Assembly: GCA_013044195.1 (NCBI GenBank)
Contig: JABEUV010000011.1
Coordinates: 10,577 to 74,576 of the forward strand
DNA: 64,000 nt
Direction of reading: 5' to 3'
DNA from: Elusimicrobiota bacterium
GTDB taxonomy: Bacteria; Elusimicrobiota; Elusimicrobia; UBA1565; UBA9628
Positions 11,243 through 44,501 of this stretch are shown one piece after another. The notes below the pieces were generated by a model. That model did no database searches, was not told the DNA's origin, and was given only the letters and a program-made list of their open reading frames with translations. The position numbers and the translations under genes are program-made. Positions within the stretch are counted from its first letter, which is position 1; each line of letters opens with the position of its first letter.

Positions 11243-13122
11243 ACCGGCTCCATGCGCACGCGCGCGCCATCAAAAGACTCGGCAAGCTCCATCGGATTGG
11301 CGCCGACGCCCTTTGCCCAGCGTCCATAGGACGTATGTCCGAGACCGAAAGGCACGCTGACGACTCCGGGCATCGCCGAGGAAAGAACCCGCGCCTTGAC
11401 CTCGATCTTGCCCGCCGGCGACAATATACGAGCCTTCCGCCCGTCCTCGACGCCGCAGGCCTTCGCGGTGTCGGGGTGTATCTCGGCCCAGGTCTCCCAT
11501 TGCTCGCTGGTCTGCACGCCGGCAAGGCTCTGCAAATAGGGAAGATGCGCTCCCTCACCGCGGGAAAACGCCAGCGGCGTAAAGACGCAGAGCTCGAGCG
11601 GAAAGTCCTTGTCCTTGGGCGCAGGTTGCGAGGCGTCCTTGAGCGCCGACGCAAGCGGCGCATAGTCGACGGGCCCGGCCGGTGGCGAGGTCAAACGTTT
11701 GTGCCAGCCAGCGGCCTTTGTCTTGGCGTAATCGCCGTAGTCTCCGCCTCGTCCGAGGGCAAGGAATATCTCCCCCGCGTCCTTCGTGTCGTAGAGCGGC
11801 TTGACGCTCCGCTCCGCGAAGTTGACCGTCGTCCCCCCCGAAAGCAGGGTATTCTCGGACGCATGCAGTTGCTCGAGCGGCGTGCGGCAGGGGAGCACGA
11901 CGTCGGCATATTCCGCCGTCTCCGTCATATACGGTGTGACCGCGACGACGAAGTCGGCCTTCTCGAGCGCGGCCCGCCAGGCGCGCGGCGCCGTGAAAAC
12001 CGGGTTGACCCGGTCGATGAGCACGACGGAGGACAGCTTCGACGAGTCCGGCGCCGGGCGAGCCTCTTGCGGACTGGCCCGGAAATACGCGCCCAAACCG
12101 CCGCACAACGCGTTGAGGGAATGGACCGCCATCTGGCTCCACGCCGGCGCGCAGCGGCTGCCCAAAGCGACGGCCGGCCTCTGCGAGGCGAACTTCTCGG
12201 CAAGGACGCGCAACGACTGCTCGGGCGCTCCCGTCAACTCGGCGGCGCGCTCGAACGTGAACGGCTCGACGGCCCGCGCCAAGGCGTCCAGTCCCCGGCC
12301 CCCGCGTTCGTGTCGGCCGGTCTTCAGCAACTGGCGCGCGACGGCCAGCGCGACATAACCGTCCGTCCCGGGCCGCGCCGGAATCCAGGAGTCTCCTTTG
12401 CCGGCCGTGACCGAAAAACGCGGCGCGACGGACACGATCTGCGCGCGCGGAATCGAGGCGCGCAACCGGCCCCAGAGCCTTTGAGTTTCAACGTGCGATG
12501 ATTGCGTCTGCAGCCAGTCGTCGCCGAACGAGACGACAAGCCGCGCGCCCGCAGGGTCGCACGAAAGCGCCCCGCCGTTCATCGCAAGATGGGCGTCGAG
12601 CGGCGGCTCTCCAGGCGCAAATCCAAAATGCAAAACACGGCCGCCAAGAGCCGTAAGCGACTCCAGCCCGACGTCGCGCAGACGGGAAAACGTCACGGCG
12701 TCGAAGGCCCCGGGGCGCAGCTTGGCGGCGACGAGCTTGAGCGCTTCCTCCCATGGCACGTTCTTCCATGAGCCTTTTGCGCGCGCACCGCTGCGGACCT
12801 GAGCGAAGCGCAGGCGGTCTGGATGATAGAGTTCCTGAAGAAGCGCCGAACCTTTCGGGCACAGCGTGCCCTGGTTGACCTGATGATCAAGGACGCCCGA
12901 CACGCCGACGGCGAGGCCGTCGATCAGGCGCACGCGCACGCCGCAGCCGGCGGGACATAAGGAGCAGACCGAGGCCGAGAATGTCTCGATGCCGAGCGGC
13001 GGCGCGGCCTCCTCCATCGGCGTCAGAAAACTCTTGCGCGCGCAAGCGGGCAACGCGGAACCTGCGCCGAAGATGCCGGCCAATTTCAGGAAATTCTTGC
13101 GTGAGAGGTCGAAGTCGTTCAT
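11239..13122 (-). CDS. Molybdopterin-oxidoreductase-like subunit (ActB1/QrcB-like), module 1
   Basis: Tat-like signal SRKNFLKLAG. N-terminal FeS cage CSLCPAGCG...C. 627 aa, corresponding to the N-terminal two-thirds of the fused 967-aa ActB at 20255-23158. Confidence 0.75.
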   Translation of the reverse strand: MNDFDLSRKNFLKLAGIFGAGSALPACARKSFLTPMEEAAPPLGIETFSASVCSLCPAGCGVRVRLIDGLAVGVSGVLDHQVNQGTLCPKGSALLQELYHPDRLRFAQVRSGARAKGSWKNVPWEEALKLVAAKLRPGAFDAVTFSRLRDVGLESLTALGGRVLHFGFAPGEPPLDAHLAMNGGALSCDPAGARLVVSFGDDWLQTQSSHVETQRLWGRLRASIPRAQIVSVAPRFSVTAGKGDSWIPARPGTDGYVALAVARQLLKTGRHERGGRGLDALARAVEPFTFERAAELTGAPEQSLRVLAEKFASQRPAVALGSRCAPAWSQMAVHSLNALCGGLGAYFRASPQEARPAPDSSKLSSVVLIDRVNPVFTAPRAWRAALEKADFVVAVTPYMTETAEYADVVLPCRTPLEQLHASENTLLSGGTTVNFAERSVKPLYDTKDAGEIFLALGRGGDYGDYAKTKAAGWHKRLTSPPAGPVDYAPLASALKDASQPAPKDKDFPLELCVFTPLAFSRGEGAHLPYLQSLAGVQTSEQWETWAEIHPDTAKACGVEDGRKARILSPAGKIEVKARVLSSAMPGVVSVPFGLGHTSYGRWAKGVGANPMELAESFDGARVRMEPV

Positions 13123-13123
13123 A

Positions 13124-13615
13124 TCAGCGGTGGCAGGCCAGGCAGTCCCTGGTCACCCCTCGGGACTGGTGGCAGGCGATGCACCGGGCCATTTTGATGG
13201 GAACCGCCTGGTAGGCGACCGGCGTCGCCTTTTCGGCCATGTCGCCGTGGCAGACGGCGCAGTCGAGCTGGGCGATCCCGACGTGGCGCTCATGCGAGAA
13301 GTAGACGTGCTTGGGCACGCTGTAGACGCGCTGCCACGGGATCTCGCGCTTCTGGGCCGCGTAATCGCGGATCGCCTGGGTCTTCGGATTGTCCTCGGAG
13401 CTGTGGCAGGTCATGCAGACCTCGGTGCGCGGAAATTGCGCATGAACGCGCCCCTCGGCGATGCCCTCGTGGCAGACTCCGCACTCCAGCCCCGCCCCGA
13501 TATGCTTCTTGTGATTAAAAGCGATCGGCTGCTCCGCCGCCTGAAGCCGGCGCGCCAACCAGAGCGCGCCGACCACGGCGGCCAGAAAGGCGCCCGCGAG
13601 TGCCGCTCGCCTCAT
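13124..13615 (-). CDS. Pentahaem c-type cytochrome, ActA-like, module 1
   Basis: N-terminal membrane anchor plus five CXXCH (CGVCH, CMTCH, CAVCH, CIACH, CLACH). Homologous to the C-terminal domain of 23174-24268 (PIAFNHKKH / VYFSHERH blocks). Confidence 0.8.
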   Translation of the reverse strand: MRRAALAGAFLAAVVGALWLARRLQAAEQPIAFNHKKHIGAGLECGVCHEGIAEGRVHAQFPRTEVCMTCHSSEDNPKTQAIRDYAAQKREIPWQRVYSVPKHVYFSHERHVGIAQLDCAVCHGDMAEKATPVAYQAVPIKMARCIACHQSRGVTRDCLACHR

Positions 13616-13618
13616 GGC

Positions 13619-13975
13619 TTACTTTTTCCCTTTCGGCGCGGCAAGCTTCGCCTGAAGCGAGCGCACATAGGCGAGGATCCCTTTGATCTCGTCATCCTGG
13701 AGCTTGCCCTTGAACGAGGGCATATTCTTGCGGCCCGAATTGATGACCTTGATCAAGTCGGCGTCCGGAGTCTTGACCGCGGCGCCGCCCGCGAGGTTCA
13801 TGATATTGATATCCGCCTTAAACGCATCGGCCATGGATGCTTTTCCGGTCCCACTCTTCGAATGGCAGATCGCGCACTTCTGCGCAAAGAGCTTTGCGCC
13901 GTCCACCTTCGCCGGCGCGGTGGGCGTCTGGGCAGCGACGTTCACGGTCAGCAACAACGTCATCAGTGTGTTCAT
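13619..13975 (-). CDS. Monohaem class-I cytochrome c
   Basis: Signal peptide, a single CAICH, distal Met (NMPSF). 118 aa. Confidence 0.8.
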   Translation of the reverse strand: MNTLMTLLLTVNVAAQTPTAPAKVDGAKLFAQKCAICHSKSGTGKASMADAFKADINIMNLAGGAAVKTPDADLIKVINSGRKNMPSFKGKLQDDEIKGILAYVRSLQAKLAAPKGKK

Positions 13976-14799
13976 TCCTTCCTCCTCTGCTTGAGAGCTA
14001 TTATAGGCTCGCTGCGCGCCGCCCGTATTGCCGGAACGCAGGCGGGGCCATGATAAAAATCATGTCTCTGCGGCGGGAGGTGCCCGACGTAGCGCAGGCG
14101 GGCCTCGTCGAGGACGCGGAGTCGGCGCCCCTCGATGGAGACAAGATTTTTGCGGGCAAGTTCGGAAAGCCCGCGGCTGACGGCCTCCGCGGACGTGCCG
14201 AGCAAATCGGCCAATTCCCGGCGCGATTCGGAGAACCGCACCATCGCTCCGCCGGACGACTCAAGCCGGCTTACAATGAGCCCCGCAAGCCGTTCAAGAA
14301 TCGTGCGCTGCGCCAGATTAAAAGTGGCCCCGTCGGCCTCGGCTAGTTTACGGGCCAGATGCCGGGAGAACATGCGCGAAAGTTCCGGCTCGACGCGCCA
14401 CAGCTCGAAGAAACTTTCCGCGTCGAGGGCGCAGATCAGAGAGTCTTCCATGACCTGCGCCGACGCGGCATAAGGCTGCTCGGCGAGCAGCGCCCTCTCC
14501 CCGAATATGTCGGGACCGCAGAACACTCGCAGGATATGACAGCGCTCCGCGCGATCATCGCGCACGAGCTTAACTCTTCCCTTGCAGAGAAAGTAGACGC
14601 TCGACGGCATGTTCCCTTCGTAGAAGAGAACGTCTCCCCGGCGGTAGCGGTTCGCGCGCCACATCACGGACATTCGTGCGTATGCCGCCTGCGGCAACCC
14701 CCTCGCGCAGGCCCAACCGCTAAAAGCGCACCGTCCGCCCGGGTCTGATCGGGCGCAAATAGCCGGAAGCAGGGCGGATTGACGGGATCGGGAGTCCAT
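13972..14799 (-). CDS. Crp/Fnr-family transcriptional regulator
   Basis: cNMP-binding-like beta-roll (GDVLFYEGNMPSSVYFLCKGRVKL) and C-terminal HTH (RRELADLLGTSAEAVSRGLSELARKNLV). Stop overlaps the start of the downstream cytochrome c gene (ATGA). Confidence 0.8.
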   Translation of the reverse strand: MDSRSRQSALLPAICARSDPGGRCAFSGWACARGLPQAAYARMSVMWRANRYRRGDVLFYEGNMPSSVYFLCKGRVKLVRDDRAERCHILRVFCGPDIFGERALLAEQPYAASAQVMEDSLICALDAESFFELWRVEPELSRMFSRHLARKLAEADGATFNLAQRTILERLAGLIVSRLESSGGAMVRFSESRRELADLLGTSAEAVSRGLSELARKNLVSIEGRRLRVLDEARLRYVGHLPPQRHDFYHGPACVPAIRAARSEPIIALKQRRKE

Positions 14800-14880: not shown

Positions 14881-16038
14881 CTAAACGCCCGCGAAGGTTC
14901 GGCTTTCCTCGATGAACGGGTCGCGCTCGGGCTCGGCGGGGACCGCGGCGAACGCGCGGTCGAGAAGAAGAACGAACGCCGCGCCTACGGCGACGAAGGC
15001 CGCCGCTTCCGCCAAGCCCAAACGCGGGCCAGGACCCTGCGACGGCTCGATCAGCATGAAGAGGTCGAGCGCATGGCCGGCCAAGAGAAGCAGGGCCGCG
15101 AAGAACAAGACGCCCTCCTTCCTCTTGCGGCTGGCGGGCAGAAGCAATCCGAAAGGAACGACGAAGTTGACGACCGGATTCGTCCAGAACAGGCACGACC
15201 ACGCCGGCGACGAGCGCATCATGTAGTGGACGGCCTCATCGGGGATGTTCGTATACCAGATCAGCAGGTACTGGCAGAACCACAGATACGCCCAGAAGCA
15301 GCTGAAGGCGAACAGATATTTTCCGAGGTCGTGCAGGTGGTTCTCATTGAGTTCGGAAAAGAAGCCGCGCCGGCGCAAGACGATGACCAGCGCTGTCACC
15401 GCCGCCAAACCGCCCTCGAAAGCGCCCGCGAAAACGAACCAGGGATAGAGCGTGCTGGTCCAGCGCGGTTCCAGCGACATCAGCCAGTCCACGGACGCCA
15501 GGCTGAACGTCAGTCCGAAGGCGAGCAGAAACGTCGCCGACGCGGCGACGGGCAGACGCAACGCTTCGCCGTGCGCGCCGTCCTGCGCGCGTGAGGATCC
15601 CACCAGCACGCGCGCGTAGGCAAGCCACACCAGCCAGCAGACGGCCGCGCGCGCGGCAAACCAGCCGACGCTGAAATAAACGGCCTTGCCCGTCCCCAGC
15701 GTCTGCGCGACTCCGGGAACGGCCCACGGGTAAATATCGCGCGCCAGGAACGCCGTCAGCATCGTCAACGCCGCGCCGAGCGGCAGGTAGGACGTCATCG
15801 CCTCCGGCGCGCGCCGGAACAGCGCCGGCCAGCCCGCGGAGGAGACGTTCTGGATCGCGATAAAAAACAGCGCGGTCAGCGCCAGCGAGGAAAAGTAGAA
15901 GTTCGCCAGCAGGAGCCCTGCTCCCGCGCGTGAAACGGAGAACTTCGCGCCGAGAACAAACAACGCGGCACCCGCGAGCAGGGCCACGAAGGCTGCGGAA
16001 GATTCGGACGGGGTCAGCAGACGCCGGTTTTCCTTCAT
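14881..16038 (-). CDS. ACIII membrane subunit ActF-like (NrfD-related)
   Basis: 385 aa polytopic protein, last gene of module 2, overlapping the cytochrome gene by 4 nt. NrfD-like hydrophobic profile. Confidence 0.6.
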   Translation of the reverse strand: MKENRRLLTPSESSAAFVALLAGAALFVLGAKFSVSRAGAGLLLANFYFSSLALTALFFIAIQNVSSAGWPALFRRAPEAMTSYLPLGAALTMLTAFLARDIYPWAVPGVAQTLGTGKAVYFSVGWFAARAAVCWLVWLAYARVLVGSSRAQDGAHGEALRLPVAASATFLLAFGLTFSLASVDWLMSLEPRWTSTLYPWFVFAGAFEGGLAAVTALVIVLRRRGFFSELNENHLHDLGKYLFAFSCFWAYLWFCQYLLIWYTNIPDEAVHYMMRSSPAWSCLFWTNPVVNFVVPFGLLLPASRKRKEGVLFFAALLLLAGHALDLFMLIEPSQGPGPRLGLAEAAAFVAVGAAFVLLLDRAFAAVPAEPERDPFIEESRTFAGV

Positions 16039-18374
16039 TTATGCTTCTCCCAGGATCGCAGGTAGGCGATGATCGATTGGATGTCCGAGGCCGCCAAGCC
16101 CGGCTTGCCGTTCATGCCGTCGCCGAAGGTGGGCATCGCCGTGCCCGGACGGCCCAGGGCGATCGTCGCCTCGAGGAAGTTGTCGTCGACCGCCTTCAAG
16201 AACTCGGGATCGAGGGACGGGGCGTAGACGCCGGGCTTGCCGCCGTGGTTGCCGCGGCCGTCGGCGCCGTGGCAGCGCGCGCAGTTGACGAGGAACAAGG
16301 CCTTGCCGTCCGAGGCGTTGTCCGAGGAGCGGTCAACCTCGCGGTAGGCCGTCGGCGGATGCGTCTCGAAGCTTCTTACATAGGCGACGACGTTGTCGAT
16401 ATCGTCCGAGGACAGCGCCGGCACGGCCGAGCCGTTTTCAAGCCCGTCGTGGAACGAAGGCATCATCGAGCCCTCGCGGCCAAGGATCACGGTTCCCTCA
16501 AGGAATCCGTTGCTGGCGACCTGGAGGAACGCCGTGTTGCCGATGCCCGGGCCAATGCCGCCTTCGCCCTGATCGCCGTGGCAGCGCGCACAGTTGGCCA
16601 CGTACACCTTTTTGCCGTCGGAGGCGGACGCCCACGAGTAGTTGCGCTTGAGGCCGTCGGCCGGAGGATGAGACTGCAGGCGACGCAGGTAGGCGACCAG
16701 GTCGTCGATGTCCTTGGGCGCCAGAGGATCGCGCGCGCGCTTCAAGAATCCCTGCATCTCGGTGCCGGTTTTTCCTCCAGCGATGGTCCGCCACAGGAAA
16801 TCGTCGGACTCCTGAGCGAGCAGGGCCGGGTTGCCGATCTGGGTGCCCATGTCGCCGGCGCCCAGGTCGCCATGACACTTGCGGCAGTTATTCTGATAGA
16901 GGACGGCGCCGTGATCGGCGTTGCCACGGCGCAGGGCCGTCGTCATCTGAACGGCGGGACTCGTGCGCCAGGTGCCGATGAAGGAGATCACATCGGCAAT
17001 CTCCTGCGCGCTGAGCTGGCGCCAGGCCGGCATCGCGGTGCCGGGGCGGCCCTGCGTGATCACGTTATACAGGAAGCGGTCGTCGGCCATCGCCAGGAAC
17101 GAGGGCGCCGACAAGGAGGAGCCGACCAGGCCCTCGCCCTTGGCGCCGTGGCAGGCCGCGCACTTGGCGGAAAACAACTTCGCGCCGTTCGAAGAAGACG
17201 CCTTCGCCGACAGCGCCGCCACCGCATCGTAGGCCGGCGCCGGAGCGTGCCAGGAGCGGATGTAGGCGATCAGGGCGTTGACGTCTCCCTCGGTCAGGTC
17301 GTAGGGCGCGGGCATCGCGGTGCGATGGCGTCCCAAAGAAATCGTGCGCCGCAGGAAGTCGTCGGAGGCCAGCGACAGGAACTGCGGCGAGTTCAGCATG
17401 TTGCCGATGCCGCCCGCGCCCTCGGGACCGTGACAGCCGATGCAGTGAGTCAGGAACAAAGCCTTGCCGCGCGCGGGATCGGCCTTGACGACGGCGTAGG
17501 GCACGATGCGCGGCGTGGGCCACGCCCAGCTACGGATGTAGAGCAGAACGCTCTGGCGCTGAGAGGGCGTCAGCGCGGTCTTCCAGGACGGCATGCCCGC
17601 GATGAGCCGGCCGTTGGCGATAATATCCATGTAGTAGGAATCTTCGGCGATCGAAATGACCGGGGGCAGGTGCAAGGTCGGTACGCCGGCGGTGGGGGTG
17701 AGCCCTTCCTCTCCGTGGCACGACGCGCAGTTCTGAGCGAAGAGTTCTCGTCCGTAGTCCACCGTCGCAGGCTCGTTGCGGCGCGGGTCATTGCCCAGAC
17801 GGACGAGCTCACGGACCTGGAGCGTGCGCAGATAATCGATGACCTTCCAGCGGTCGTCGGCACTCACCAGCGCGCCGTGCGCCGGCATCAGGTTCAGGCC
17901 ATGGCCGAAGGTGATGACGTGGAACAGCGCGCCGTCGGGCATCGCATACACCGACGGCGACGCGACCGGAAACGAAAAGCGCTTGAAGGCTCGCGCCACC
18001 GCGCCGTCGCCGAGCCCGGTATAGCCGTGGCAGTGCTGGCAGTACGACTCGAAGACCTTGCGGCCGCGGGCGAGGTTCTCCGCGGTGGGCGGAAACGGGT
18101 TCTTGAGCTCGCGGCCGGCGCGAGCCATCTCACGCAGGCCGGGACCGTAGTGCAAAGGCTCCTGTCCGCGCGCGACCGCGCCTTCCGGCGCCGGGCGCAT
18201 CGCCCGCCCGTCCGAGAAAAGAGTGCTGGACTCCTGGCTGTGCACCGCCGGCGTGCGGTACAAGTCGGTGAAAATGCGGGGGTTGAAGCGGGTCAGGTCT
18301 TGACGCGTGGCCAGGATCACGACGGAAACCAAGACGGCCAAAATCGCGGCGGGAAGCAGACTGCGGCGGCTCAT
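16035..18374 (-). CDS. Membrane-anchored c-type cytochrome with seven tandem class-I haem c domains (ActE position)
   Basis: 779 aa. Seven CXXCH (CQHCH, CASCH, CIGCH, CAACH, CRKCH, CARCH, CARCH), each followed about 40 aa later by a TAMP/TEMQ/SMMP Met-ligand motif. N-terminal transmembrane anchor. Confidence 0.8.
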   Translation of the reverse strand: MSRRSLLPAAILAVLVSVVILATRQDLTRFNPRIFTDLYRTPAVHSQESSTLFSDGRAMRPAPEGAVARGQEPLHYGPGLREMARAGRELKNPFPPTAENLARGRKVFESYCQHCHGYTGLGDGAVARAFKRFSFPVASPSVYAMPDGALFHVITFGHGLNLMPAHGALVSADDRWKVIDYLRTLQVRELVRLGNDPRRNEPATVDYGRELFAQNCASCHGEEGLTPTAGVPTLHLPPVISIAEDSYYMDIIANGRLIAGMPSWKTALTPSQRQSVLLYIRSWAWPTPRIVPYAVVKADPARGKALFLTHCIGCHGPEGAGGIGNMLNSPQFLSLASDDFLRRTISLGRHRTAMPAPYDLTEGDVNALIAYIRSWHAPAPAYDAVAALSAKASSSNGAKLFSAKCAACHGAKGEGLVGSSLSAPSFLAMADDRFLYNVITQGRPGTAMPAWRQLSAQEIADVISFIGTWRTSPAVQMTTALRRGNADHGAVLYQNNCRKCHGDLGAGDMGTQIGNPALLAQESDDFLWRTIAGGKTGTEMQGFLKRARDPLAPKDIDDLVAYLRRLQSHPPADGLKRNYSWASASDGKKVYVANCARCHGDQGEGGIGPGIGNTAFLQVASNGFLEGTVILGREGSMMPSFHDGLENGSAVPALSSDDIDNVVAYVRSFETHPPTAYREVDRSSDNASDGKALFLVNCARCHGADGRGNHGGKPGVYAPSLDPEFLKAVDDNFLEATIALGRPGTAMPTFGDGMNGKPGLAASDIQSIIAYLRSWEKHK

Positions 18375-18889
18375 TGCAGGGACTCCTCTTTGACTTCAAC
18401 GGCACCGGCGTCGCTCAACAAACGACGCAAAGCCTCACCGTCGCCGCCGCGCCTCAGCGCCAGGACGAAGCGGTCGTTGAGGCCGCCCAGGTTCGACAAG
18501 GCCGGGACCTTCTCCGGATTCGGAATCAGCCCGCGCGTGAGCAGGAACGTGAGCACGGACCCCACGGACGCGAACAGAACGGTCAGTTCGAAGCCGATCG
18601 GGATCAGCGCCGGGATGGCCGAGTAGGACTTGCCGCCGATGATCATCGGCCAATCGATGCGCGTGGCCCAATACTCGAAGCTCAGCGCGGTGGCCAAGCC
18701 CGCCGCGCCGAAGCCCAGACACGCCAACGGCAGAAACGACGGCGACAAGCCCATGGCCGTATCCAGGCCGTGCACGGCGAACGGCGTGTAGGCGTCCTGG
18801 ATCGTGAACCCGGCCGCGCGCGCATTCCTGGCGGCGGCGACGATGTCGTGCTCGGTGCGAAAAATTCCGACGACGAGCTCAGTGGCCAT
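18371..18889 (-). CDS. ACIII subunit ActD-like (DUF3341) membrane protein
   Basis: 172 aa, two predicted transmembrane helices, between ActC and the cytochrome as in act operons. Confidence 0.6.
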
Positions 18890-20258
18890 GCGCGCCCTCC
18901 TCGGGCCGCCGGGCGTAGTGGAGCACCCCTTTGACCTCGCTGATCGCGATCATCGGCAGAACGCGACAGAACAGCAGAAATGCCGTAAAGAACAGACCGA
19001 AGCTGCCGCACAGCGTGCCGACCTCGATATACGTCGGGTGATACATCGTCCAACTCGACGGCAGGAAGTCCCGGTGCAGGGAGATCACGATGATGTTGAA
19101 GCGCTCCAGCCACATCCCGATGTTGATGCAGATCGAGATGATGAAGACGAGCCAGGGCGTCGTGCGCACGCGCTTGGACCACAGCGCCTGAGGGATGAAG
19201 GCGTTGCAGAGAAACATCGTGTAGTAGCACCACCGGTAGGGCCCGAAGAGGCGGTTGAGGAAAGTGAAGCGCTCGTAGGGGTTGCTGCCGTACCAGGCGA
19301 AGAACAACTCCGTGCAGTAGCCGAGCGTGAGGATCATCCCCGTCGCCAGGGTGATCTTGCACATCGCGTCGATGTGGCGCAGCGTGATGTATTCCTCGAA
19401 GTTCATCACCTTGCGCGCGATGATCATCAAGGTCATGACCATCGCAAATCCCGAGAAGATGGCGCCGTCCACGAAGTAGGGCGGGAAGATCGTCGTGTGC
19501 CAGCCGGGCAGGACCGCGGTGGCGAAGTCGAAGCTGACGATGGTGTGCACCGAGAGCACCAGCGGCGTGGCCAAGCCCGCCAGCAGAAGATACAGCGCCT
19601 CATAGTGCGTCCAAGTGCGCATGGACCCGTCCCAACCCAGGCTCACCGCCCGGAAGATCTTCCGACGCCAGCCATTGGCCCGCTCCGCGACCAGCGCCAG
19701 GTCGGGAAGAAGGCCCATGTACCAGAATATCGCCGAGACGGTGAAGTAGGTGCTGATCGCGAACACGTCCCAGAGCAGGGGCGAGCGGAAGTTGACCCAC
19801 AACGGACCCATCGTGTTCGGATAGGGGAACACCCAATAGGCCAACCAGGGCCGGCCCATATGGATCAGCGGGAACACGCCCGCGCACATGACCGCAAACA
19901 ACGTCATGGCCTCGGCCGAGCGGTTGACCGACGTGCGCCAACGCTGGCGGAACAGGAACAGAATCGCCGAGATCAGCGTTCCGGCGTGGCCGATGCCGAC
20001 CCAGAACACGAAGTTCGTGATGTCGAACGCCCAGCCCACGGTCTTGTTGAGGCCCCAGGTCCCGATGCCGGTCCAGATCTGATCAACGACCAGAAAAACG
20101 CCGATCATCAAGACCGTCGACGACGCGGCGATCGAGTAGTACCAGGCGGACGTCGGGCCCCGCTCGATCGGGGAACACACGTCCTCGGAAACGCGAGCGT
20201 AATCCTTGCCCCCGTCGATCAACGGCCGGCGCAATGTCGAGACGGCGTGTTCGCTCAT
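18879..20258 (-). CDS. ACIII quinol-oxidising membrane subunit ActC (NrfD family), module 2
   Basis: 459 aa polytopic. [22 protein letters not shown] and [11 protein letters not shown] blocks, paralogous to 8838-10406. Confidence 0.85.
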
Positions 20259-23158
20259 GACTTCCTCACCTGCGCGTTGCGCACCTTAATCCCGTAGAAC
20301 ACCGAGGGGCCCACGCCCAATTCCTCGAGCACGCGGAAACTGTGATTCTCGCGTGCCGTCCGAGCGACCCGGCTCTTCGGGTCGTTCATGTCGCCGAACA
20401 CGATCGCGTCCGCCGGACAGCTCTGCGCGCAGGCGGGCGTGACGTCGCCGTCCACCACCGCGCGGCCGTCCTCGGCCGCTTGGAACTTGGCGGAGTTGAT
20501 GCGCTGGACGCAGAACGAGCACTTCTCCATGACGCCGCGCGTGCGCACCGTGACGTCCGGGTTCAAGACCATATTCTGAGTCAGATCGTCATGCGCGTAA
20601 TCGAACCAGTTGAAGCGACGGACCTTATAGGGGCAGTTGTTGGCGCAGTAGCGCGTGCCCACGCAACGGTTGTAGACCTGCATGTTCAGGCCTTCCGTCG
20701 AGTGCGTGGTCGCGGCCACGGGGCACACGGTCTCACAGGGCGCGTCGTCGCAGTGCTGGCAGAGCATCGGCTGGAACGCCACGGTCGGATTCGTCTCGGG
20801 CTCGTCGCCGCCGTAGTAGCGGTCCAGACGGATCCAGTGCATCTCGCGGCTCTTGCGCACCTCGGCCTTGCCCACGACCGGCACGTTGTTTTCCGCCGTG
20901 CAGGCGACCACGCAGCCGGCGCAGCCCGTGCAGGAGGTCAAATTGATGGCCATCCCCCACTTGTGGCCCTTGTAGTCGTGCTTGGGCCACATCCCCGCCT
21001 CATTTTCCGGCACGCCCTCGGCCGGAGCAAGCTTGCGGTATTCCTCCAGGCTCGCTTCTTGAATAATCGGGCGTTCGCGGCCGGTGAACGGCTCCGTCAG
21101 CGAATCCATGAGCTGAGTGCGCGCCAACGCGGAGGTCTGCTCCAGCACGGCCACCGACAGCGCCGAACCGGACGCCAGCGGGAAGATGTCCGCGCCGCCC
21201 GGCGGATCCACCTCGATGGGCAGAAGCTTGCGCGTCGGCAGGTTCGCCGCGATCGGGCCCGCGGACGGGCGTCCGTAGCCCAGAGCCGCCGCCACCACGC
21301 CGTCGGCCTGGCCGGGCTGGACGCACGCGGGCAGGTCGATCGCGCGGGTGCCGGCGCTCAACCGCACCATGCGCCCGTCTTCCACGCCCAGGCGCTTGGC
21401 GTCGGCCGGAGAGAACAAAGCGACATTGCCCCACGTGACTTTCGTCACCGGGTCCGGTAGTTCCTGCAACCACGGATTGTTGGCCTGGCGTCCGTCGAAC
21501 ATCGCCACGCTGGCGTAGGCGTCCAGCTCGAACTCGCCCGCCGCCGCCGCCGCGCGCGCGGATTTAAGCCCGGACAGAGCCTCGGCGCGCAGGGCGCCGT
21601 GCGCCTCGGCCGGAGCGTCGATCGATACCACGCCGCGCTCCAATGCTTGGTCCCAGAACGCGTCGAAGGAGCCGCCGCCCTTGTGACGGGGATAGACGGT
21701 CTTAAGCCACTGGCCGCGCACGTAATCGTGGGCCGTGACCGCCTGGCCCGACCACGCCAGCAGGCTTTCGATGATCGAGCGCGAATCGTAAAGCGGCTCG
21801 ATGAGCGGCTGGACCAAGCTGTGCACGCCGGCCGCGGGCCGCGCGTCGCCCCAGGTTTCCAGGGCGTGCGGCGTCGTCGCCACGAAAGCCGCGTGCGTCG
21901 CGGTCTCGTCGCGGCGCTGCGTCAAGGACACGAGCGCCCCGACCTTCGCCAACGCGGCGGTGAACGCCTCCGCCCGGGAGTGGTCGTAGCACGGGTTGGC
22001 CTCGAAAACGATCAGCGCGCCGACTTCGCCGCGCTCCATCTCCGCGATCAGGCGGTCCAAAGCACCCGTCTCGCCACGGCGCTGGTAGGAAGGATGCGCG
22101 ACGTCCACGGTGCGGCCATAGGCGCCCAGCGTCTCGTTGAGTCCGTTGACCGCGCGCTGAACGGCCGAATCGGAGGAACCGCTGACGACCAAGGCCTCGC
22201 CGTGAGCGGCGGCCAAGGCCTCCGCGGTCCGGCGCAGAACCTCGTGCGCGACGGGCGTCTTGCCCGCCACGTGCGCCGGCGCGGCGCGGCCCAAGCGTTC
22301 GGCGACCAACCGGGACAGTTCGACGACGGTCGCCAGCATGTCCGAAGGCTTGACGGCCGCGCGCAGGTCGGCGTTGGCTCCGGTGACGGACATGCGCGAC
22401 TCAAATTGCGCATGCCAGGACATCTTGCCGTCGGGCTTGCGTCGGGCGGACCAGGACTTGGTGAACTCCACGGGCGAAAGCCACGCGCCCAGGAAATCCG
22501 CGTCGAAAGAGGCGATCGCGCGCGCATTCTCGAAGCGATAACGGGGCAGGACGGCCCGGCCGCGCGTGAGGCGGTGCGCCTCCAGGATCGCGGCGAAGGA
22601 CGGCTCGTCGTAGATCACGCGCTCCGCGCCGTGGCGCGCGCAGAACTCCGCGACCGCGGCGTCCAGCGCCGGGCTGGGCACGGTCTGCGAAAGCACGCGC
22701 ACTTTGCGCCCCTGGCGCTTCGCCTCGGCCAACGCCTTCTCCACACCTGCGTCCAAGGACGCCCACGAGGCCGCAGCTCCCGCGGACAAAGGATTTTTGA
22801 GACGCTCTGAATCGTAAAGGTCCAGAACCGTCGCTTGACCGCGCGCGCACAGGCCGCCGCGCGAAAGCGGATGATCGGGATTGCCTTCCATCTTGATCGG
22901 ACGGCCGTCGCGGCTCTTGACCAGAACGCCGCACGCCGCCGCACAGCCCGCGCAGGTGGACGCATACCAGCGCGCCAGGCCCGGCGTCTGACCTTCGATT
23001 TGGCGGGCATACGGCACGATCTTCTCGCGCGGGGCGTGCAGGTCGCAGCCGGAGGCCATCGCAGCAAAGCTGCCGCCGAGAATTTTTAGGAAGTCGCGGC
23101 GCTCCACGCCTTCCCGGCCGTCCTGCTCTTCGTACGCGCGGCGCTCGTCTTCGGTCAT
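20255..23158 (-). CDS. ACIII subunit ActB (fused molybdopterin-like domain + 4-cluster FeS domain), module 2
   Basis: 967 aa. Twin-arginine signal [11 protein letters not shown]-terminal CAGCAAACG...C cage. C-terminal ferredoxin clusters ([37 protein letters not shown]). Confidence 0.85.
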
Positions 23159-23173
23159 GGGTTCCTCAAAGTG

Positions 23174-24268
23174 TCAAAAATGGCAGGACGCGCAATCAAG
23201 CGGTCCGCCGACACGCTTCCAGTGGCTGGGCGCGTCCTTCGGCGTCAAGCGATGGCAATTGATGCACCAGCCCATGGTCAGCGGCGCGGCCTGACGCATC
23301 CGCGTCATCGTCTGCACGGGCCCATGGCACTCCTGGCACTGCAGGTTATTGGCGATGTGCGCGCGATGGCTGAAGTGCACGTAGTCGGGCAGGTGATGGA
23401 CCCGGTTCCACGCAAAGCCCCGTGCGGTCGGGGAGCTCACGCTCGCATCGTAAGCCGCGACGATCTTGGCGATCTCGGGCGAAGGCTCCTTGGCGCCGGA
23501 GACGGAGCGCACGGCCACATGGCAGTTCATGCACACGCTGAGCGGCGGAACGCCCGCCGAGTCGCTGCGCTGGGCGCCGCCGTGGCAATACAGGCAGGAG
23601 ATGGTCAGACGACCGGCGTGAAGCTCATGAGAGAACGCGATGGGCTGAGGCGGTATGTGGCCCTGCTGGTCGCCGGGGAGGCGGAAATAACGCCAGCCGC
23701 CGAACGCCCAGTAGGCGGACGCCGCACAGAACACCGCCAGCACCGCGGCGTCGCGCCGTGCGCCGAAAACCGAAACGATCAAAGTCCCGGCCGCCAACAC
23801 CGCGAAAATTAGCAGGCCCGGGACGGAGAACCCGTGCCAGCCCTCGTCCGGAGAGCGCAGTTCTGGGGAAGGCGTCTGGGACGCGGACTGAATGAACGCA
23901 ATCAGGCCTTCGGCCTGGGCCTTGGTGACATGGACGTTTTCCATGCGCAGGTCGCCGTACTCGGCCAACAGCTTCTTGGCCTGCGCATCCTTGTCCAAAT
24001 AGGGATCCGGGTTCTGAATAAAGCCGACGAGCCAATCCTTGTCGCGGCGGGAAGTCACGCCCGCCAGGTCGGGGCCGACGCCGCGTCCGCCGCCGACAGT
24101 GTGGCATTGCGCGCAGCGATGGATGAAAAGCATCGCGCTGTCGTGCAAAGAACCGGAGGAGGCCTCCGCATGTGCGGACACGGCCGCCAGCAACAGAACG
24201 AACGCCGCGACCGCACGCGCGGGCACCCCAAAACTCGATCGCGATGTCCGCTGGCTCATCCTTTTCAT
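23174..24268 (-). CDS. ActA-like pentahaem cytochrome c with an additional N-terminal monohaem class-I domain (six CXXCH)
   Basis: Signal peptide, then CAQCHTVGGG (class-I-like), a transmembrane segment, then five CXXCH (CLYCH, CMNCH, CQECH, CINCH, CASCH). Confidence 0.8.
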   Translation of the reverse strand: MKRMSQRTSRSSFGVPARAVAAFVLLLAAVSAHAEASSGSLHDSAMLFIHRCAQCHTVGGGRGVGPDLAGVTSRRDKDWLVGFIQNPDPYLDKDAQAKKLLAEYGDLRMENVHVTKAQAEGLIAFIQSASQTPSPELRSPDEGWHGFSVPGLLIFAVLAAGTLIVSVFGARRDAAVLAVFCAASAYWAFGGWRYFRLPGDQQGHIPPQPIAFSHELHAGRLTISCLYCHGGAQRSDSAGVPPLSVCMNCHVAVRSVSGAKEPSPEIAKIVAAYDASVSSPTARGFAWNRVHHLPDYVHFSHRAHIANNLQCQECHGPVQTMTRMRQAAPLTMGWCINCHRLTPKDAPSHWKRVGGPLDCASCHF

Positions 24269-24278: not shown

Positions 24279-24728
24279 TCAGTTCTTGGCCGGAGCCGCA
24301 GGCGTCGTCATCGAAGACGACGACACAGTCGCCGAAGCCGCCTTGGACTCGCCCTGGCCCGCCGCGGCCTTCAACTTGGCGGCCAACAGGTCTTTCTTGC
24401 GCACCGACGAGTCGTAGATCAGGAAGTCGGTGATCGTCTTCTGCGCGGCGCCGTGGATGCCCGAGTAGCGCTTGTGGCGCATCTTATCGACGAGAGCCTG
24501 CCACTCGGCGGGAGTCGCGTAGTCCGAATTGATCGCGCGCGCCGTCGTGTGGCAGGTCGAGCACTTGTCCAGGAACAGTTTGTAGGCGGCCTGTTGTTCC
24601 TTGGGATACTTCGAAACATCGATGGTGGCGGGGCCGCTGTCGGCCGGGAACGTCTGGTCGGCCGCGTACGAAGGCGCGCAGACCAGGAAGGCCGCCAAAA
24701 CGAAGACGGCCACTAGAATTTTTTTCAT
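24279..24728 (-). CDS. Small secreted single-CXXCH protein (putative monohaem cytochrome), paralogue A
   Basis: Signal peptide MKKILVAVFVLAAFLVCAPSYA. FPADSGPATIDVSKYPKE...KCSTCHTTARAIN. Paralogous to 25095-25616. Confidence 0.5.
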   Translation of the reverse strand: MKKILVAVFVLAAFLVCAPSYAADQTFPADSGPATIDVSKYPKEQQAAYKLFLDKCSTCHTTARAINSDYATPAEWQALVDKMRHKRYSGIHGAAQKTITDFLIYDSSVRKKDLLAAKLKAAAGQGESKAASATVSSSSMTTPAAPAKN

Positions 24729-24742
24729 GGTCGGAATCTCCC

Positions 24743-24961
24743 TCACCGCTTCGCCCTTGCGGCCTTCACCGCGTCCGCGGGCATGGGCTCAAAAATGGTA
24801 TCCATCGGACCGTTCGGGCGGGAGCGTGGCGCCGCAGAGCGCGACGACCGGCGCAGACGCGGCAGAACGAACATTCCGCCCGCCAATCCGACCAGCGCCC
24901 CCCCGATGAACTGTCTTCGAGTTTTCGCGGCGGACTTTTTCGATTCGATCATGCGGCCCAC
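24743..24961 (-). CDS. Small ORF with Tat-type signal (TRRQFIGGALVGLAGG), hypothetical
   Basis: 72 aa. Stop overlaps the start region of paralogue A. Tat consensus S/T-RR-x-F-L/I. No other homology recognised. Confidence 0.3.
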   Translation of the reverse strand: MGRMIESKKSAAKTRRQFIGGALVGLAGGMFVLPRLRRSSRSAAPRSRPNGPMDTIFEPMPADAVKAARAKR

Positions 24962-25094
24962 TCCTCAAGCAACAAAATTTCTAAGGCCATTTTAGTTCAT
25001 GTCCGAGCCGTTGTCAAAAATCACGACGGGGCGGCTCCGGCGCTCGACCGCAACGCTTAGACGCGCCGCGGCCGAGCGCCGTGTCTGCGTCCGT

Positions 25095-25616
25095 TTATTT
25101 CGGGAACAGGCGCTTGTAATCGTCGGGGTGCTTCTTTTCGAAGTCCTCGACGAGCTTGAGACGCGCGGCCTTCCACGCGGCGGCCTTCGCTCCGGTCTTG
25201 CGCGCTTTCGAGTCGTAGACCAGGAACTCCCAGATGCGCTTGCCGCTCATCTTGTTGACCGGGCAGCCGGGCTTGGCCATCATGCGCTTGACCAGGCGGT
25301 TCCAGGCGTGCTCGCTGACGTCGATCAGGCGCGTGTCGGTGAACAGATCGGGCTGATCCTTGCGCGCCTTGGCCTCTTCCTCCGCGTTCAACTCCACGAA
25401 CTGAGCGTTGATCGGGCGGGCGATCGTGTGGCAGTTCGAGCACTTCTTCTGGAACTCTGCGTACGTCTTCTGCATTTCCTTCGGATAAGAAGAGACGTCG
25501 ATCTTGGTCGGGCCCGCGTCGTTGGGAAAAATCTGCGCCGCGGCCCGCGGCGCGGCGCCGAACACGGCACCCGCCAGCAACGCCGTCACGACCGCCACAA
25601 TCCGCACTTTCTTCAT
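25095..25616 (-). CDS. Small secreted single-CXXCH protein (putative monohaem cytochrome), paralogue B
   Basis: Signal peptide. FPNDAGPTKIDVSSYPKE...KCSNCHTIARPIN, aligning with paralogue A. Confidence 0.5.
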   Translation of the reverse strand: MKKVRIVAVVTALLAGAVFGAAPRAAAQIFPNDAGPTKIDVSSYPKEMQKTYAEFQKKCSNCHTIARPINAQFVELNAEEEAKARKDQPDLFTDTRLIDVSEHAWNRLVKRMMAKPGCPVNKMSGKRIWEFLVYDSKARKTGAKAAAWKAARLKLVEDFEKKHPDDYKRLFPK

Positions 25617-26339: not shown

Positions 26340-26969
26340 ATGGCGTCCGGACGCATGCGCCGAGTCTGCCTGCTGGCCGGCGCGGGCGCGGACAGCTCCG
26401 CGCTCGCCTGGGAGCTCTTGAGCCGCGGCTTCGAGGTGCATCCGCTCTACGTGCGCTGCGGCTTTCGCTGGGAGCGCGCGGAGCTGTTTTGCCTGAGGCG
26501 CCTTCTGCGCCGCCTGGCGCGGCCCGGGCTCAAGCCGCTGACGGTGATGGCGGCCCCGATGAACGGCGCGCTTGCCGGACACTGGAGCCTGTCCGGGCGC
26601 GCGGTGCCCGATGCGCGCAGCGCCGCCGACAGCGTCTATCTTCCCGGCCGCAACCTGATCCTGCTGTCCCAGGCCGGAGTGCTGTGCGGCCTCAAGGGAC
26701 TGCCGGCGATCGCGACGGCGGTGCTCCGCGGCAATCCGTTTGCCGACGCGCGTCCCGCGGCGTTCGCCGCGATGTCGCGCGCGATCAGCCTGGCCGTCGA
26801 CAGGCGCGTGGAGGTCTTCGCGCCGTATCTGCGGCTGAGCAAGGAAAGAGTGCTGGCCCGCACGCCCGGCCTGCCGCTGGAATTGACCTTCTCCTGCCTC
26901 AATCCGCGCGGATTGCGCGCGTGCGGCGACTGCAACAAGTGCGCCGAGCGCGCGCTCGTCGTTTCTTAA
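26340..26969 (+). CDS. QueC/ExsB-like PP-loop ATPase with C-terminal Zn-ribbon
   Basis: Degenerate PP-loop LLAGAGADSS (cf. SGGxDS). C-terminal CLNPRGLRACGDCNKCAER four-Cys motif as in QueC. Start assigned to ATG 26340 within the longer ORF. Confidence 0.55.
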   Translation: MASGRMRRVCLLAGAGADSSALAWELLSRGFEVHPLYVRCGFRWERAELFCLRRLLRRLARPGLKPLTVMAAPMNGALAGHWSLSGRAVPDARSAADSVYLPGRNLILLSQAGVLCGLKGLPAIATAVLRGNPFADARPAAFAAMSRAISLAVDRRVEVFAPYLRLSKERVLARTPGLPLELTFSCLNPRGLRACGDCNKCAERALVVS

Positions 26970-28021
26970 GCCTGAACGGGACGCGGCGCGTGACGCAGGC
27001 TCAACTCGCGTCCGCTGGACAGCGAGCGCGCCCAGGCGTCGAACTCCGCGGCTTTCGCCTGGACGATGGCGCGCGCGGCGGCGATCGCCCCGGCGCGCTC
27101 GGACAGATTCTTGGCCACGATCGACTCCAGGTCTTCCAGGCGGTAGAGGTAGACGCCGTCGAGCTCGTGCACCGATTCCTCCACGTCGCGCGGCATGGCG
27201 ATGTCGATGAAAAACAAGGAGCGCCCGCCGCGGCGGCGCAGGGCGGAGGCGACCATCGCGCGCGTGACCACCGCGCTCGGCGCGCCGGTGGACGCGATCA
27301 CCACGTCCGCGTCGACCAAGGCTTCCGCGGCCGCCTCCCAGCGCACGGCCTCGCCGTGGAAGCGCGCGGCCAGCGCATAGGCGCGCTCCCAGGTGCGGTT
27401 GGCCACCGAGATGCGGGCGGCCCCCCGGGCGACCAGGTGCTTGACGGCGAGCTCCGCCATGGCGCCCGCGCCCAGGATCAGCGCGGATTTTCCCTCCAGC
27501 CGGCCGAAGATGCTCTCGGCCAGTTGCACGGCCACCGAGGGCACCGACGAAGCGCCCGCGGCGATGCCGGTCTCGGAGCGCGCGCGCTTACCGACGTAGA
27601 GCGCGCGCTGAAACAGAACGTTCAAGCGCTTGCCGGTCATGCCCGCGGCTTTCGCCGTCTCGTAGGACGTCTTGAGCTGACCCAGGATTTCGGTCTCTCC
27701 GACGACGAGCGAGTCCATGCCCGCCGAAACGCCGAAAAGATGCTCGACTGCGGCGGCGTCTTCGCGCGCCTCGGCGTTCGCGCGGACGTCGGCGCCCGCC
27801 AACTCGCTCAACGCCTCCAGCAGGCGCTCGCACGCCGGCGGCGAGTCAAGGGCGGAGGCCGCGTACAGCTCGAAGCGGTTGCAGGTGGAGATCGCGACGG
27901 CTTCGGTCACGCCGCGGCTCTTGAGCTCGGCCAACACGCGCTCCACCGGCACCGCCGCCAACGCCTCGCGCGACGCCGCCGCCGAGGCGCGATGGCTCCA
28001 GCCCAATTGGAGAAGCTTCAC
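26966..28021 (-). CDS. hemA: Glutamyl-tRNA reductase HemA
   Basis: GTG start (VKLLQLGWSHRASAAASREAL...), catalytic TCNRFELYA, Rossmann LILGAGAMAELAVKHL. GTGA overlap with hemX upstream. Confidence 0.8.
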   Translation of the reverse strand: MKLLQLGWSHRASAAASREALAAVPVERVLAELKSRGVTEAVAISTCNRFELYAASALDSPPACERLLEALSELAGADVRANAEAREDAAAVEHLFGVSAGMDSLVVGETEILGQLKTSYETAKAAGMTGKRLNVLFQRALYVGKRARSETGIAAGASSVPSVAVQLAESIFGRLEGKSALILGAGAMAELAVKHLVARGAARISVANRTWERAYALAARFHGEAVRWEAAAEALVDADVVIASTGAPSAVVTRAMVASALRRRGGRSLFFIDIAMPRDVEESVHELDGVYLYRLEDLESIVAKNLSERAGAIAAARAIVQAKAAEFDAWARSLSSGRELSLRHAPRPVQA

Positions 28022-41035: not shown

Positions 41036-41037
41036 CC

Positions 41038-41763
41038 ATGGCCGATATCGCGGTGGTGACGGGAGGCTCGGGCGGGATCGGGGCGGCGATCGCGAAGATG
41101 ATCCACGCCAAGTCCGACGGCCAATTGACCGTCTGCATTCACTACAACGGCAACGAGGCCGCGGCCAAGGCGGTCGCGGCCGAAATCCCGGGCTCGTTCA
41201 TCGTGAAGGCCGATCTCTCCACCGGCGAAGGCCGCAAGGCCCTTTTGGACGCCGTGCTGGCGAAAGGCACGCCGTTTTGTTTGATCAACAACGCCGGCAT
41301 CGACAAGCCGCACGAACCGGCGCTGATGGTCGACGAGGCGTCGTTCGACAAGATCATCAACACCAATCTGCGCGCGCCGTTGTTTCTGATGCGCGACTTC
41401 GCCAAGGAAATGGCGCGCAACGAGGCGGGCGTCATCGTCAACATCTCCTCGGTGCTGGCGCGCAAGGCCGTGATCGGCTCCGCGCTGTATCGCGCCTCCA
41501 AGGCCGCGCTGGAGGCGCTGACCATGCAGTTCGCCGCCGAACTGGGCCCCAAGGGCCTGCGCGTGGTCGCCGTGGCCCCCGGCTTCATCGAGACCGCCAT
41601 GACCGCGGGCATCCCTGAGGACCAGCGCGCGGGCATCAAGAAGGACGTGGCGCTCGGCGCCTTCGGCTCGCCCGACGCCGTGGCCGAGACCGTGTGGCAC
41701 GCCGTCGAAAACCAATACCTCAACGGTGCCGTGATCGCCGTGGACGGAGGAATGCACCTCTAA
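41038..41763 (+). CDS. 3-Oxoacyl-ACP reductase (FabG-like SDR)
   Basis: VVTGGSGGIGAAIA, NNAG, and catalytic S...YRASKAAL. Confidence 0.85.
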   Translation: MADIAVVTGGSGGIGAAIAKMIHAKSDGQLTVCIHYNGNEAAAKAVAAEIPGSFIVKADLSTGEGRKALLDAVLAKGTPFCLINNAGIDKPHEPALMVDEASFDKIINTNLRAPLFLMRDFAKEMARNEAGVIVNISSVLARKAVIGSALYRASKAALEALTMQFAAELGPKGLRVVAVAPGFIETAMTAGIPEDQRAGIKKDVALGAFGSPDAVAETVWHAVENQYLNGAVIAVDGGMHL

Positions 41764-43561: not shown

Positions 43562-43600
43562 TATAATTCCGGTTCTAGCCCGCACCCAGGAGAAACCATC

Positions 43601-44500: not shown

Positions 44501-44501
44501 G

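Follow-up and report, generated by a model that had tools for sequence, protein, structure and literature searches.

Alternative complex III (ACIII) is one of the two known bacterial routes of quinol oxidation that feed high-potential acceptors. The stretch analysed here, a 64-kb window on a contig of an Elusimicrobiota bacterium (assembly GCA_013044195.1, contig JABEUV010000011.1), carries at positions 14881-24268 an act operon made of six consecutive open reading frames (ORFs) of 364, 967, 459, 172, 779 and 385 amino acids (aa), all on the minus strand. These ORFs encode a complete ACIII in which the fifth subunit, ActE, has acquired six further class-I cytochrome c domains and thus seven haem sites (ActE7). 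Numbering is that of the window throughout, and the genes and gene portions of the operon are the following:

23174-24268, minus strand: ActA, 364 aa, six haems; matches 6btm_A (E 3.7e-46) and 6f0k_A (1.1e-33)
20255-23158, minus strand: ActB, 967 aa; matches 6btm_B (E 1.8e-183), 6lod_B (2.7e-178) and 6f0k_B (1.9e-177)
18879-20258, minus strand: ActC, 459 aa, NrfD-like quinol-interacting membrane subunit; matches 6btm_C (E 3.1e-179), 6f0k_C (1.2e-166) and PF03916
18371-18889, minus strand: ActD, 172 aa, membrane subunit; matches PF11821 (E 3.3e-46) and 6btm_D (E 7.3e-23)
16035-18374, minus strand: heptahaem cytochrome (ActE7), 779 aa, seven CXXCH motifs
17790-18374, minus strand: ActE portion of the 779-aa protein, residues 1-195
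16035-17789, minus strand: six-domain class-I cytochrome c cassette, residues ~196-779, haems 2-7
14881-16038, minus strand: ActF, 385 aa, second NrfD-like membrane subunit; matches 6btm_F (E 1.3e-55) and 6f0k_F (1.1e-36)

Identity and layout of the act operon

In searches against all PDB sequences, the top matches of the six ORFs are the corresponding ACIII chains A-F, the solved complexes used for comparison being 6BTM, 6F0K, 6LOD and 8K9E, and ActD reaches 157.5 bits with PF11821 against a cutoff of 25.7. Since the best solved-structure match of every ORF is an ACIII chain and ActD lies far above its cutoff, the locus can be assigned from its sequence to a true ACIII, of the quinol:cytochrome c oxidoreductase type, with ActA to ActF all present, as a preliminary description of this DNA had proposed. 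ActB is a fusion of a molybdopterin-like (B1) and an iron-sulfur (B2) part (PF04879, PF01568 and Fer4 families), is matched over nearly its full length by 6lod_B and 6f0k_B, and has at its N-terminus RRDFLK as a twin-arginine motif and ASGC as a putative lipobox. ActF, for which the Pfam scan returned no family, gives weaker matches to ActC chains as well, so that ActC and ActF make up the paired NrfD-like subunits. The G + C content at third codon positions (GC3) of the six ORFs, 0.81-0.90, matches that of the other genes called in the window, and CXXCH motifs are confined to ActA (six) and to the 779-aa protein (seven), the other four ORFs having none. The 4-nucleotide (nt) overlaps described earlier between the act genes occur as ATGA at the B/C, D/E and E/F junctions; C and D overlap by 11 nt instead, and A and B are separated by a gap of 15 nt.

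The closest solved structure for all six subunits is the Flavobacterium johnsoniae ACIII (6BTM), determined as a supercomplex with cytochrome aa3, which shares with the window the gene order, a six-haem ActA with a class-I domain before the anchor, and an ActB with a lipid-anchor-type N-terminus. The two differ in ActE, which in F. johnsoniae has 162 aa and one haem (7 c-haems in total) and in the window 779 aa and seven haems (13 in total), and in that no aa3 oxidase genes adjoin the act operon of the window. The complexes of Rhodothermus marinus (6F0K), Roseiflexus castenholzii (6LOD/6LOE) and Chloroflexus aurantiacus (8K9E) are likewise homologous in all subunits, so that the comparison with Rhodothermus, Flavobacterium and Chloroflexus places every window subunit within ACIII; the pentahaem core of ActA, the fused ActB and the paired NrfD-like ActC/ActF are common to all, but in these three complexes ActA is devoid of the N-terminal monohaem domain, ActE is monohaem, and the partners are a caa3 oxidase or auracyanin.

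The extra monohaem class-I domain ahead of the pentahaem domain of ActA, one of the two peculiarities claimed in the preliminary description, is indeed present, but it is not unusual. ActA has CXXCH motifs at residues 52, 225, 246, 311, 335 and 359, distributed over a signal peptide, a class-I monohaem domain (~43-130; PF00034 at 47-129), a two-helix membrane hairpin (~145-181) and a pentahaem module (~200-364), PF14522 being matched as well; the hairpin, predicted from the hydrophobic segments at 145-181, would place both haem domains in the periplasm. The alignment with 6btm_A runs in two stretches (29-135 and 177-343), the first of which pairs with residues 41-148 of the F. johnsoniae ActA, a subunit reported to carry six haems and to have a mobile N-terminal domain (PMC8552683). 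ActA homologues with six haems are plentiful both in the clade of the window and in Bacteroidota, and ActA is therefore best classed, on sequence grounds, as a known type and not as a novel one.

The seven-haem ActE and its six-domain cassette

In the 779-aa protein the CXXCH motifs lie at residues 112, 216, 311, 405, 497, 595 and 698, with a spacing of 92-104 residues, and the Pfam search resolves seven distinct stretches of PF13442 (E 2e-78) and as many of PF00034 (E 4e-65). Such a count is far beyond chance, and the earlier assignment of a single gene with seven class-I domains holds. The same description had the protein occupying the ActE position as a substitute, which is not the case: residues 8-190 are ActE itself (6btm_E, E 1e-19; 6f0k_E, 1.4e-17; 6lod_E, 7e-12), and because the ActE chains of the solved complexes, including 8k9e_E, all cover about this region (E 1e-19 to 6e-9; in the 6btm_E alignment, residues 31-185 against 8-158), the protein is an ActE to which six domains have been appended.

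Across 52 aligned orthologues (43-88% identity) none of the seven CXXCH motifs varies, and neither do Met163, 261, 354, 448, 540, 638 and 747, each ~39-47 residues past its CXXCH, where the sixth ligand of a class-I haem site is expected. The seven sites are thus predicted to be of the His/Met class-I type, haem 1 of the ActE portion being held by C112-H116 with Met163. Added to the six motifs of ActA, they give one complex 13 c-haem sites, in agreement with the number first proposed.

The ORF is uninterrupted, and an identical protein is encoded in a separate Logan assembly of run SRR9677583 and is also held in NCBI. Among the 120 best homologues of the 779-aa protein, the set in which the cluster counts given here were taken, 75 clusters (766-808 aa, 43-88% identity) have exactly seven CXXCH motifs at near-constant positions and derive mostly from metagenome-assembled genomes (MAGs) of Elusimicrobiota and Planctomycetota; a further 33 clusters have 10 CXXCH, four of them closely spaced and followed by six class-I domains, and other relatives have 6. 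The order ActA (six haems)-B-C-D-E7-F recurs in related loci (L002, L003, L006-L008, L031, L086-L089, L091-L094, L097-L100 and L103), and in the loci examined the seven-haem gene always lies between actD and actF. When domain 1 was searched against 1.84 billion representatives, 130 of the 150 best ActE-type sequences carried a single CXXCH (median length 210 aa), only two of the 150 were full-length seven-haem proteins, and a few had 2-6 haems. Judged from these sequences, the seven-haem ActE is rare across ACIII and typical of its own clade; the reserve made at the outset, that the domain count might be usual for the clade, is thus justified within the clade and does not extend to ACIII in general.

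Intermediate haem numbers are also found. Cytochromes with four haems (~583-632 aa) occupy the ActE position in a Planctomycetaceae act cluster (L021 1246-3144) and in the proteins P0246 and P0251, hence the haem number of ActE varies in steps (1, 4, 7). One metagenome locus (L095 5953-9858, 56% identity) has an ActE-type ORF with six CXXCH together with a five-CXXCH ActA, which may reflect domain loss or an assembly problem, and a protein of 1399 aa with 19 CXXCH at an exact spacing of ~71 residues (P0257) represents an extreme case of small cytochrome c domains arranged in tandem. In the literature, the standard ActE carries one haem (PMC8076601), ActE is missing from some act clusters (PMC8552683), and an ACIII-like cluster reported from the candidate phylum MBNT15 has a four-haem ActE-like protein and is reported to be without actF (PMC9386147). 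The MBNT15 protein, which like ActE7 has more than one haem at the ActE position (four against seven), is the sole published precedent found, no description of a heptahaem ActE or of the shared cassette having been found in the literature; neither the orthology of the cassette nor a link to a NapA-like enzyme is described in that report.

The appended domains have relatives outside ACIII. In BLAST comparisons, residues 205-776 of ActE7 are collinear with the six class-I domains of a ten-haem protein (P0107, 41% identity) and with a six-haem protein (P0080, 46% identity), with in-register scores far above the out-of-register ones. The domain score matrix is strictly diagonal, domains 2-7 of ActE7 corresponding to domains 5-10 of P0107 and to domains 1-6 of P0080, and domain 1 of ActE7 has no counterpart in either protein. 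Because domains 2-7 pair in order with both proteins and domain 1 with nothing, the six domains form a portable cassette that is older than its fusion to ActE.

The ten-haem form is found at 14 loci (L004, L005, L009-L019 and L038) from Planctomycetota, Phycisphaerae, Gemmatimonadales, Verrucomicrobiota and one "Deltaproteobacteria" MAG, always between the Rieske/cytochrome b genes and a NapA-like gene, in the order GltD-like flavoprotein, Rieske protein, cytochrome b, ten-haem cytochrome, NapA-like protein, two NapG-like proteins, NapH-like protein, YHS/NapH-like protein and NapG-like protein. The free-standing six-haem form is encoded immediately 5' of a NapA-like gene, which the same ferredoxin-type genes accompany. 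In both, as in ActE7, the cassette (41-46% identity) is attached to or encoded beside a quinol-oxidising complex; the ten-haem proteins differ from ActE7 in having an N-terminal tetrahaem domain in place of ActE and Rieske/cytochrome b as host, and the six-haem protein in having no N-terminal module. From their gene content, the ten-haem clusters give the impression of a Rieske/cytochrome b complex with a fixed connection to a NapA-type enzyme, and no paper describing such a cluster of GltD-like, Rieske, cytochrome b and NapA-like genes was found.

Carriers built into a membrane complex are also known from CcoP of cbb3 oxidases, QcrC of the actinobacterial bcc complex and cytochrome cy, but these have two domains, or three in a fusion construct, against seven in ActE7. 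In the clade II nitrous-oxide reductase system of Wolinella succinogenes, the NapGH-like NosGH, the c-type cytochromes NosC1/C2 and, as proton-motive quinol oxidase, a Rieske/cytochrome bc complex together serve one periplasmic reductase; there the terminal enzyme is NosZ, the cytochromes are small and separate, and ACIII is not involved.

With the 52-sequence alignment, AlphaFold2 gave a model of the 779-aa protein with a mean predicted local distance difference test (pLDDT) of 84 and a predicted template modelling score (pTM) of 0.76. The ActE portion consists of an N-terminal membrane helix (3-23), a low-confidence linker (29-70) and then the monohaem domain, and the domains past the linker are well predicted and all-helical. 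When the model was compared with the PDB by Foldseek, 6btm_E was the first match; every chain covers a few domains at most, with a query-normalised TM-score of <=0.17. In the search against PDB sequences, pairs of domains align to CcoP (8SMR, 3MK7) and QcrC (6HWH, 7Q21). A pTM of 0.76 over seven domains means a confident relative placement, and therefore the model suggests that the domains form a fixed body and not free beads. The latter arrangement, in which each of the six extra domains would move independently on its tether and ferry electrons to more than one oxidase or reductase of the membrane, in the manner of cytochrome cy, the ActA head or the cytochrome c fused to caa3, draws on the likeness of the individual domains to the CcoP and QcrC dihaem units, on the helix anchor followed by the low-confidence linker, and on the N-terminal domain of ActA, which is unresolved in 6BTM and offers a precedent for a mobile class-I domain on ACIII. 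It is nevertheless unlikely, given the predicted domain placement, the inter-domain linkers of ~10-15 residues, which are moderately conserved and almost free of indels in the 52 orthologues, and a domain order strictly kept across three architectures. The periplasmic haem "wire" of the preliminary description is, on the same linkers and the same pTM, plausible.

Neighbouring genes in sister loci and in the window

Among the heptahaem act loci with enough upstream sequence (n=18; two of the Nap-linked ones possibly from the same organism), 13 adjoin NapH/YHS/NapG-like genes or a NapA-like gene, their ActE7 being 44-48% identical to that of the window. In L086 and L087 a single same-strand cluster with overlapping or abutting genes runs from a porin through NapA-like, NapG, NapH, YHS and NapG genes to ActA-B-C-D-E7-F. 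A gene for an Alginate_exp-type outer-membrane barrel stands just 5' of the NapA-like gene, or next to it, in L086 (562-1809), L087 (1434-2717) and L097 (2013-3407). The NapA-like protein of these sister loci has NapA as its top PDB matches (2JIO, E 2.5e-67; 2NYA; 1OGY), retains the context of the molybdenum-ligand Cys (RMCMTSA against RLCMASA in 2JIO) and bears a twin-arginine translocation (TAT) signal. Neither a NapB dihaem nor a NapC tetrahaem cytochrome was found in the gene lists of the loci with the cassette and a NapA-like gene, and the only cytochromes in the Nap-linked lists are the cassette proteins and ActA.

The surroundings of the operon in the window are of another kind:

24989-25017, minus strand: promoter candidate, sigma-70-like TTGACA-17-TAAAAT with 11/12 consensus matches, in the intergenic gap upstream of the 72-aa ORF
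24743-24961, minus strand: 72-aa ORF with a TAT-like motif (TRRQFIGG), a hydrophobic segment (18-36) and a conserved GPxDxIFEPM motif
24279-24746, minus strand: 155-aa secreted protein with a single CXXCH (CSTCH), directly upstream of actA
13972-14799, minus strand: Crp/Fnr-family regulator (PF00027, PF13545), directly downstream of actF

The promoter candidate may mark the start of the operon, which is suggestive only, as 13.5 kb contained 2 sites of this kind where 1.2 were expected. The 72-aa ORF matches no Pfam or NCBIfam entry and is conserved 5' of actA in the clade of the window, being similar to a 68-aa ORF before actA in L003 (E 3e-9) and present also in L093. The 155-aa protein falls in no Pfam family, giving only weak sub-threshold matches to SorB and c551; it is similar to a 150-aa ORF before actA in L003 (E 2e-50), has homologues near act in L003, L089, L088 and L006, and has a paralogue in the window at 25095-25616 on the minus strand, secreted, with a single CXXCH and likewise without a Pfam family. 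From their sequences, the two may represent a new family of small cytochromes. One or both of the 72-aa ORF and the 155-aa protein precede actA in 4/5 window-clade loci, both doing so in the window and in L003; in L088 a class-I cytochrome of 127 aa and a TAT-like ORF of 80 aa stand before actA, with a 155-aa homologue further upstream. Homologues of the 155-aa protein often occur in a trio with HemA and Crp (L088, L006). HemA, the glutamyl-tRNA reductase of the first step of haem synthesis, is encoded near the operon of the window (26966-28348, minus strand), as it is in L088, L006, L094 and L103.

The Crp/Fnr regulator has FixK/FtrB/Fnr-type NCBIfam matches below the cutoffs; in L087 and L031 a Crp-family gene is the neighbour of actF, and in L088 and L006 one lies close to the operon. 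Directly downstream of the window's regulator gene, at 8838-13975 on the minus strand, is a second ACIII/Qrc-like module, which has neither ActD nor ActF. Its products are a 118-aa cytochrome c with one haem, a 163-aa pentahaem protein of the ActA/QrcA kind, a separate molybdopterin-like subunit of 627 aa that bears a TAT signal, a 279-aa iron-sulfur subunit and an NrfD-like subunit of 522 aa. Assignment to the Qrc equivalogs was rejected, the scores being 91 against a cutoff of 180 for QrcA, 200 against 440 for QrcB, 291 against 400 for QrcC and 39 against 570 for QrcD; by its predicted architecture the module is related to the Qrc menaquinone reductase without being its equivalog. Further away, an 806-aa ORF (28906-31326, minus strand) has gene-like codon bias (GC3 0.85) and no Pfam or NCBIfam match, and was rejected as an MtrB-like barrel for want of similarity. 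The plus strand carries at 37960-48643 a run of fatty-acid/polyketide-type genes (enoyl reductase, ketoacyl synthase (KAS) III-like, double FabA, ketosynthase, acyltransferase/phosphopantetheinyl transferase, hydrolase, malonyl-transferase-like), with radical S-adenosylmethionine (SAM) and Trp-halogenase-like/tetratricopeptide repeat (TPR) genes further on.

A proposed built-in path between ACIII and periplasmic enzymes

The reading to which we give a probability of roughly 0.6 is that the locus encodes a true ACIII whose ActE7 cassette carries electrons to periplasmic enzymes, a NapA-type partner being the best supported one elsewhere; the extension of ActE probably works as an electron cable that is part of the complex and leads to partners in the periplasm, an enzyme resembling nitrate reductase for example. 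Domain 1 would dock like the ActE of the known structures and take electrons from the haem chain of ActA, and domains 2-7, as a membrane-tethered and largely fixed multi-haem body, would lead them through the periplasm to terminal enzymes, replacing soluble cytochromes c. The best-supported partner would be a TAT-exported NapA-type molybdoenzyme accompanied by NapG/NapH-like proteins and working without NapB/NapC, which is favoured because the cassette adjoins a NapA-like gene in all three architectures. More broadly, the cassette would be the output path, and possibly an input path, between the ActA haems and periplasmic partners. For the clade of the window, which has lost or moved its Nap-type neighbour, candidate acceptors or donors may be the small monohaem proteins encoded upstream, the Qrc-like module and the porin-cytochrome conduits of related loci.

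Several points weigh against this proposal. All five window-clade loci (the window, L003, L089, L093 and L088; 56-100% identity) are without a Nap-type neighbour, and for this reason the Nap partner is transferred to the window from the sister clade. Pfam and phmmer searches found no NapA-like, terminal oxidase or porin-cytochrome gene in the 64-kb window, nor NapGH-like or Rieske/cytochrome b genes when 39 further ORFs were examined by Pfam and by phmmer with queries derived from the loci. The NapA-like protein itself scores 322 bits with the NapA model against a cutoff of 904, and nearly as much, 315 bits, with that of the formate dehydrogenase alpha subunit (Fdh-alpha); it belongs to a distinct clade, and nitrate is no more than its putative substrate. 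In addition, genes lying side by side reveal neither whether their products touch nor which way electrons flow, the NapA-like enzyme could be supplied by the NapG/NapH-like proteins alone, and an exit route via ActE is not guaranteed.

A more far-reaching version, which we put forward only tentatively, takes the cassette as a dedicated adaptor joining a proton-motive quinol oxidase (ACIII, or Rieske/cytochrome b) to a NapA-type molybdoenzyme devoid of NapB/NapC and, in some lineages, also to outer-membrane porin-cytochrome conduits. It would then serve an unrecognised energy-conserving route of nitrate respiration, or a nitrate reduction driven by Fe(II) or an electrode with reverse flow through ACIII, over a 13-haem wire crossing much of the periplasm.

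The direction of flow could also be the opposite one. ActE7 would then gather electrons supplied by periplasmic donors or by the cell exterior, as from Fe(II) via an MtoAB/PioAB-like porin-cytochrome. These electrons would reach an acceptor of high potential, either an oxidase or the NapA-like enzyme, and, going uphill by way of ACIII, also the quinone pool. Class-I haem sites with His/Met ligands are usually of high potential, so that seven of them fit an Fe(II)-fed chain more readily than a metal-reducing chain of low potential, and ACIII has been proposed to run in reverse in ACIII-containing iron oxidisers. Genes for MtrA-like decahaem and MtrB_PioB proteins lie on both sides of the act operon in L088 (5813-9247 and 19693-21071) and downstream of it in L103 (18798-22195), with an MtrA-like gene at the edge of L006 (21067-21974); these neighbours are a hint of extracellular electron exchange. 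Iron-oxidising bacteria that contain ACIII are the subject of PMC4643136, PMC5566968 and PMC9900912. Porin-cytochrome genes are nonetheless restricted to 3 of ~10 loci with enough flank and absent from the window, no Cyc2 or other iron oxidase was identified, and the direction of flow cannot be read from sequence, which leaves the inlet a doubtful alternative to an outlet towards periplasmic enzymes.

Less probable still is that the extra haems mainly store charge and sustain quinol oxidation during a transient shortage of acceptor. A role as "electron sink or buffer" has been proposed for the canonical ActE of F. johnsoniae (PMC8552683), 13 haems offer a large capacity, and the window clade has no fixed partner gene; but storage leaves unexplained why the same ordered cassette is found beside a NapA-like gene in all three architectures, and the way in which each domain is conserved according to its position suggests that the domains play different parts along a path. 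Finally, an artefact (a mis-assembly, frameshift-fused genes or a mis-annotated CcoP of a cbb3 oxidase) is excluded, in spite of the label "cbb3-type cytochrome c oxidase subunit III" given to some homologues by the Joint Genome Institute (JGI) and of the 197 bits reached with NCBIfam TIGR00782 (ccoP; cutoff 180), since that score adds up four repeat stretches of a model for two domains, the protein has seven, begins with ActE (residues 1-190) and is encoded between actD and actF, ccoN and ccoO were not found in the window, and the intact ORF recurs as an identical protein in a separate assembly and as 75 clusters from many samples that retain the full length and all haem sites. Another curated cutoff, that of TIGR04485 (SoxX), is also exceeded through repeat summing (66.7 against 61), and database names such as the one cited arise because repeat-summed scores pass these cutoffs. 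The naming of the seven-haem ActE as "cbb3 subunit III" or as a generic "c-type cytochrome" is thus a systematic mis-annotation.

What appears to be new in these loci, going by the literature found, is the heptahaem ActE and the shared cassette; the presence of ACIII in groundwater Elusimicrobia lineage IV (bioRxiv 10.1101/765248) and the six-haem ActA were already known. In Planctomycetota, act-like clusters have been reported next to nar, nap, nxr, cox and porin-cytochrome genes, the haem count of the "ccoP" among them not being given in that paper.

A lineage that has fixed six extra haem domains on ActE argues that this subunit can be the main exit of ACIII, and ActE7 represents a natural construct for testing it; it is a matter of debate whether ActE or the ActA head releases the electrons. 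A cassette that serves ACIII as well as Rieske/cytochrome b, and that is accompanied by a NapA-like enzyme, suggests that proton-pumping quinol oxidases are connected to periplasmic reductases in a modular, hard-wired way. Periplasmic reductases of the Nap type are normally thought to bypass such oxidases, and if the link is true, estimates of the energy yield of nitrate respiration in groundwater Elusimicrobiota and Planctomycetota would change.

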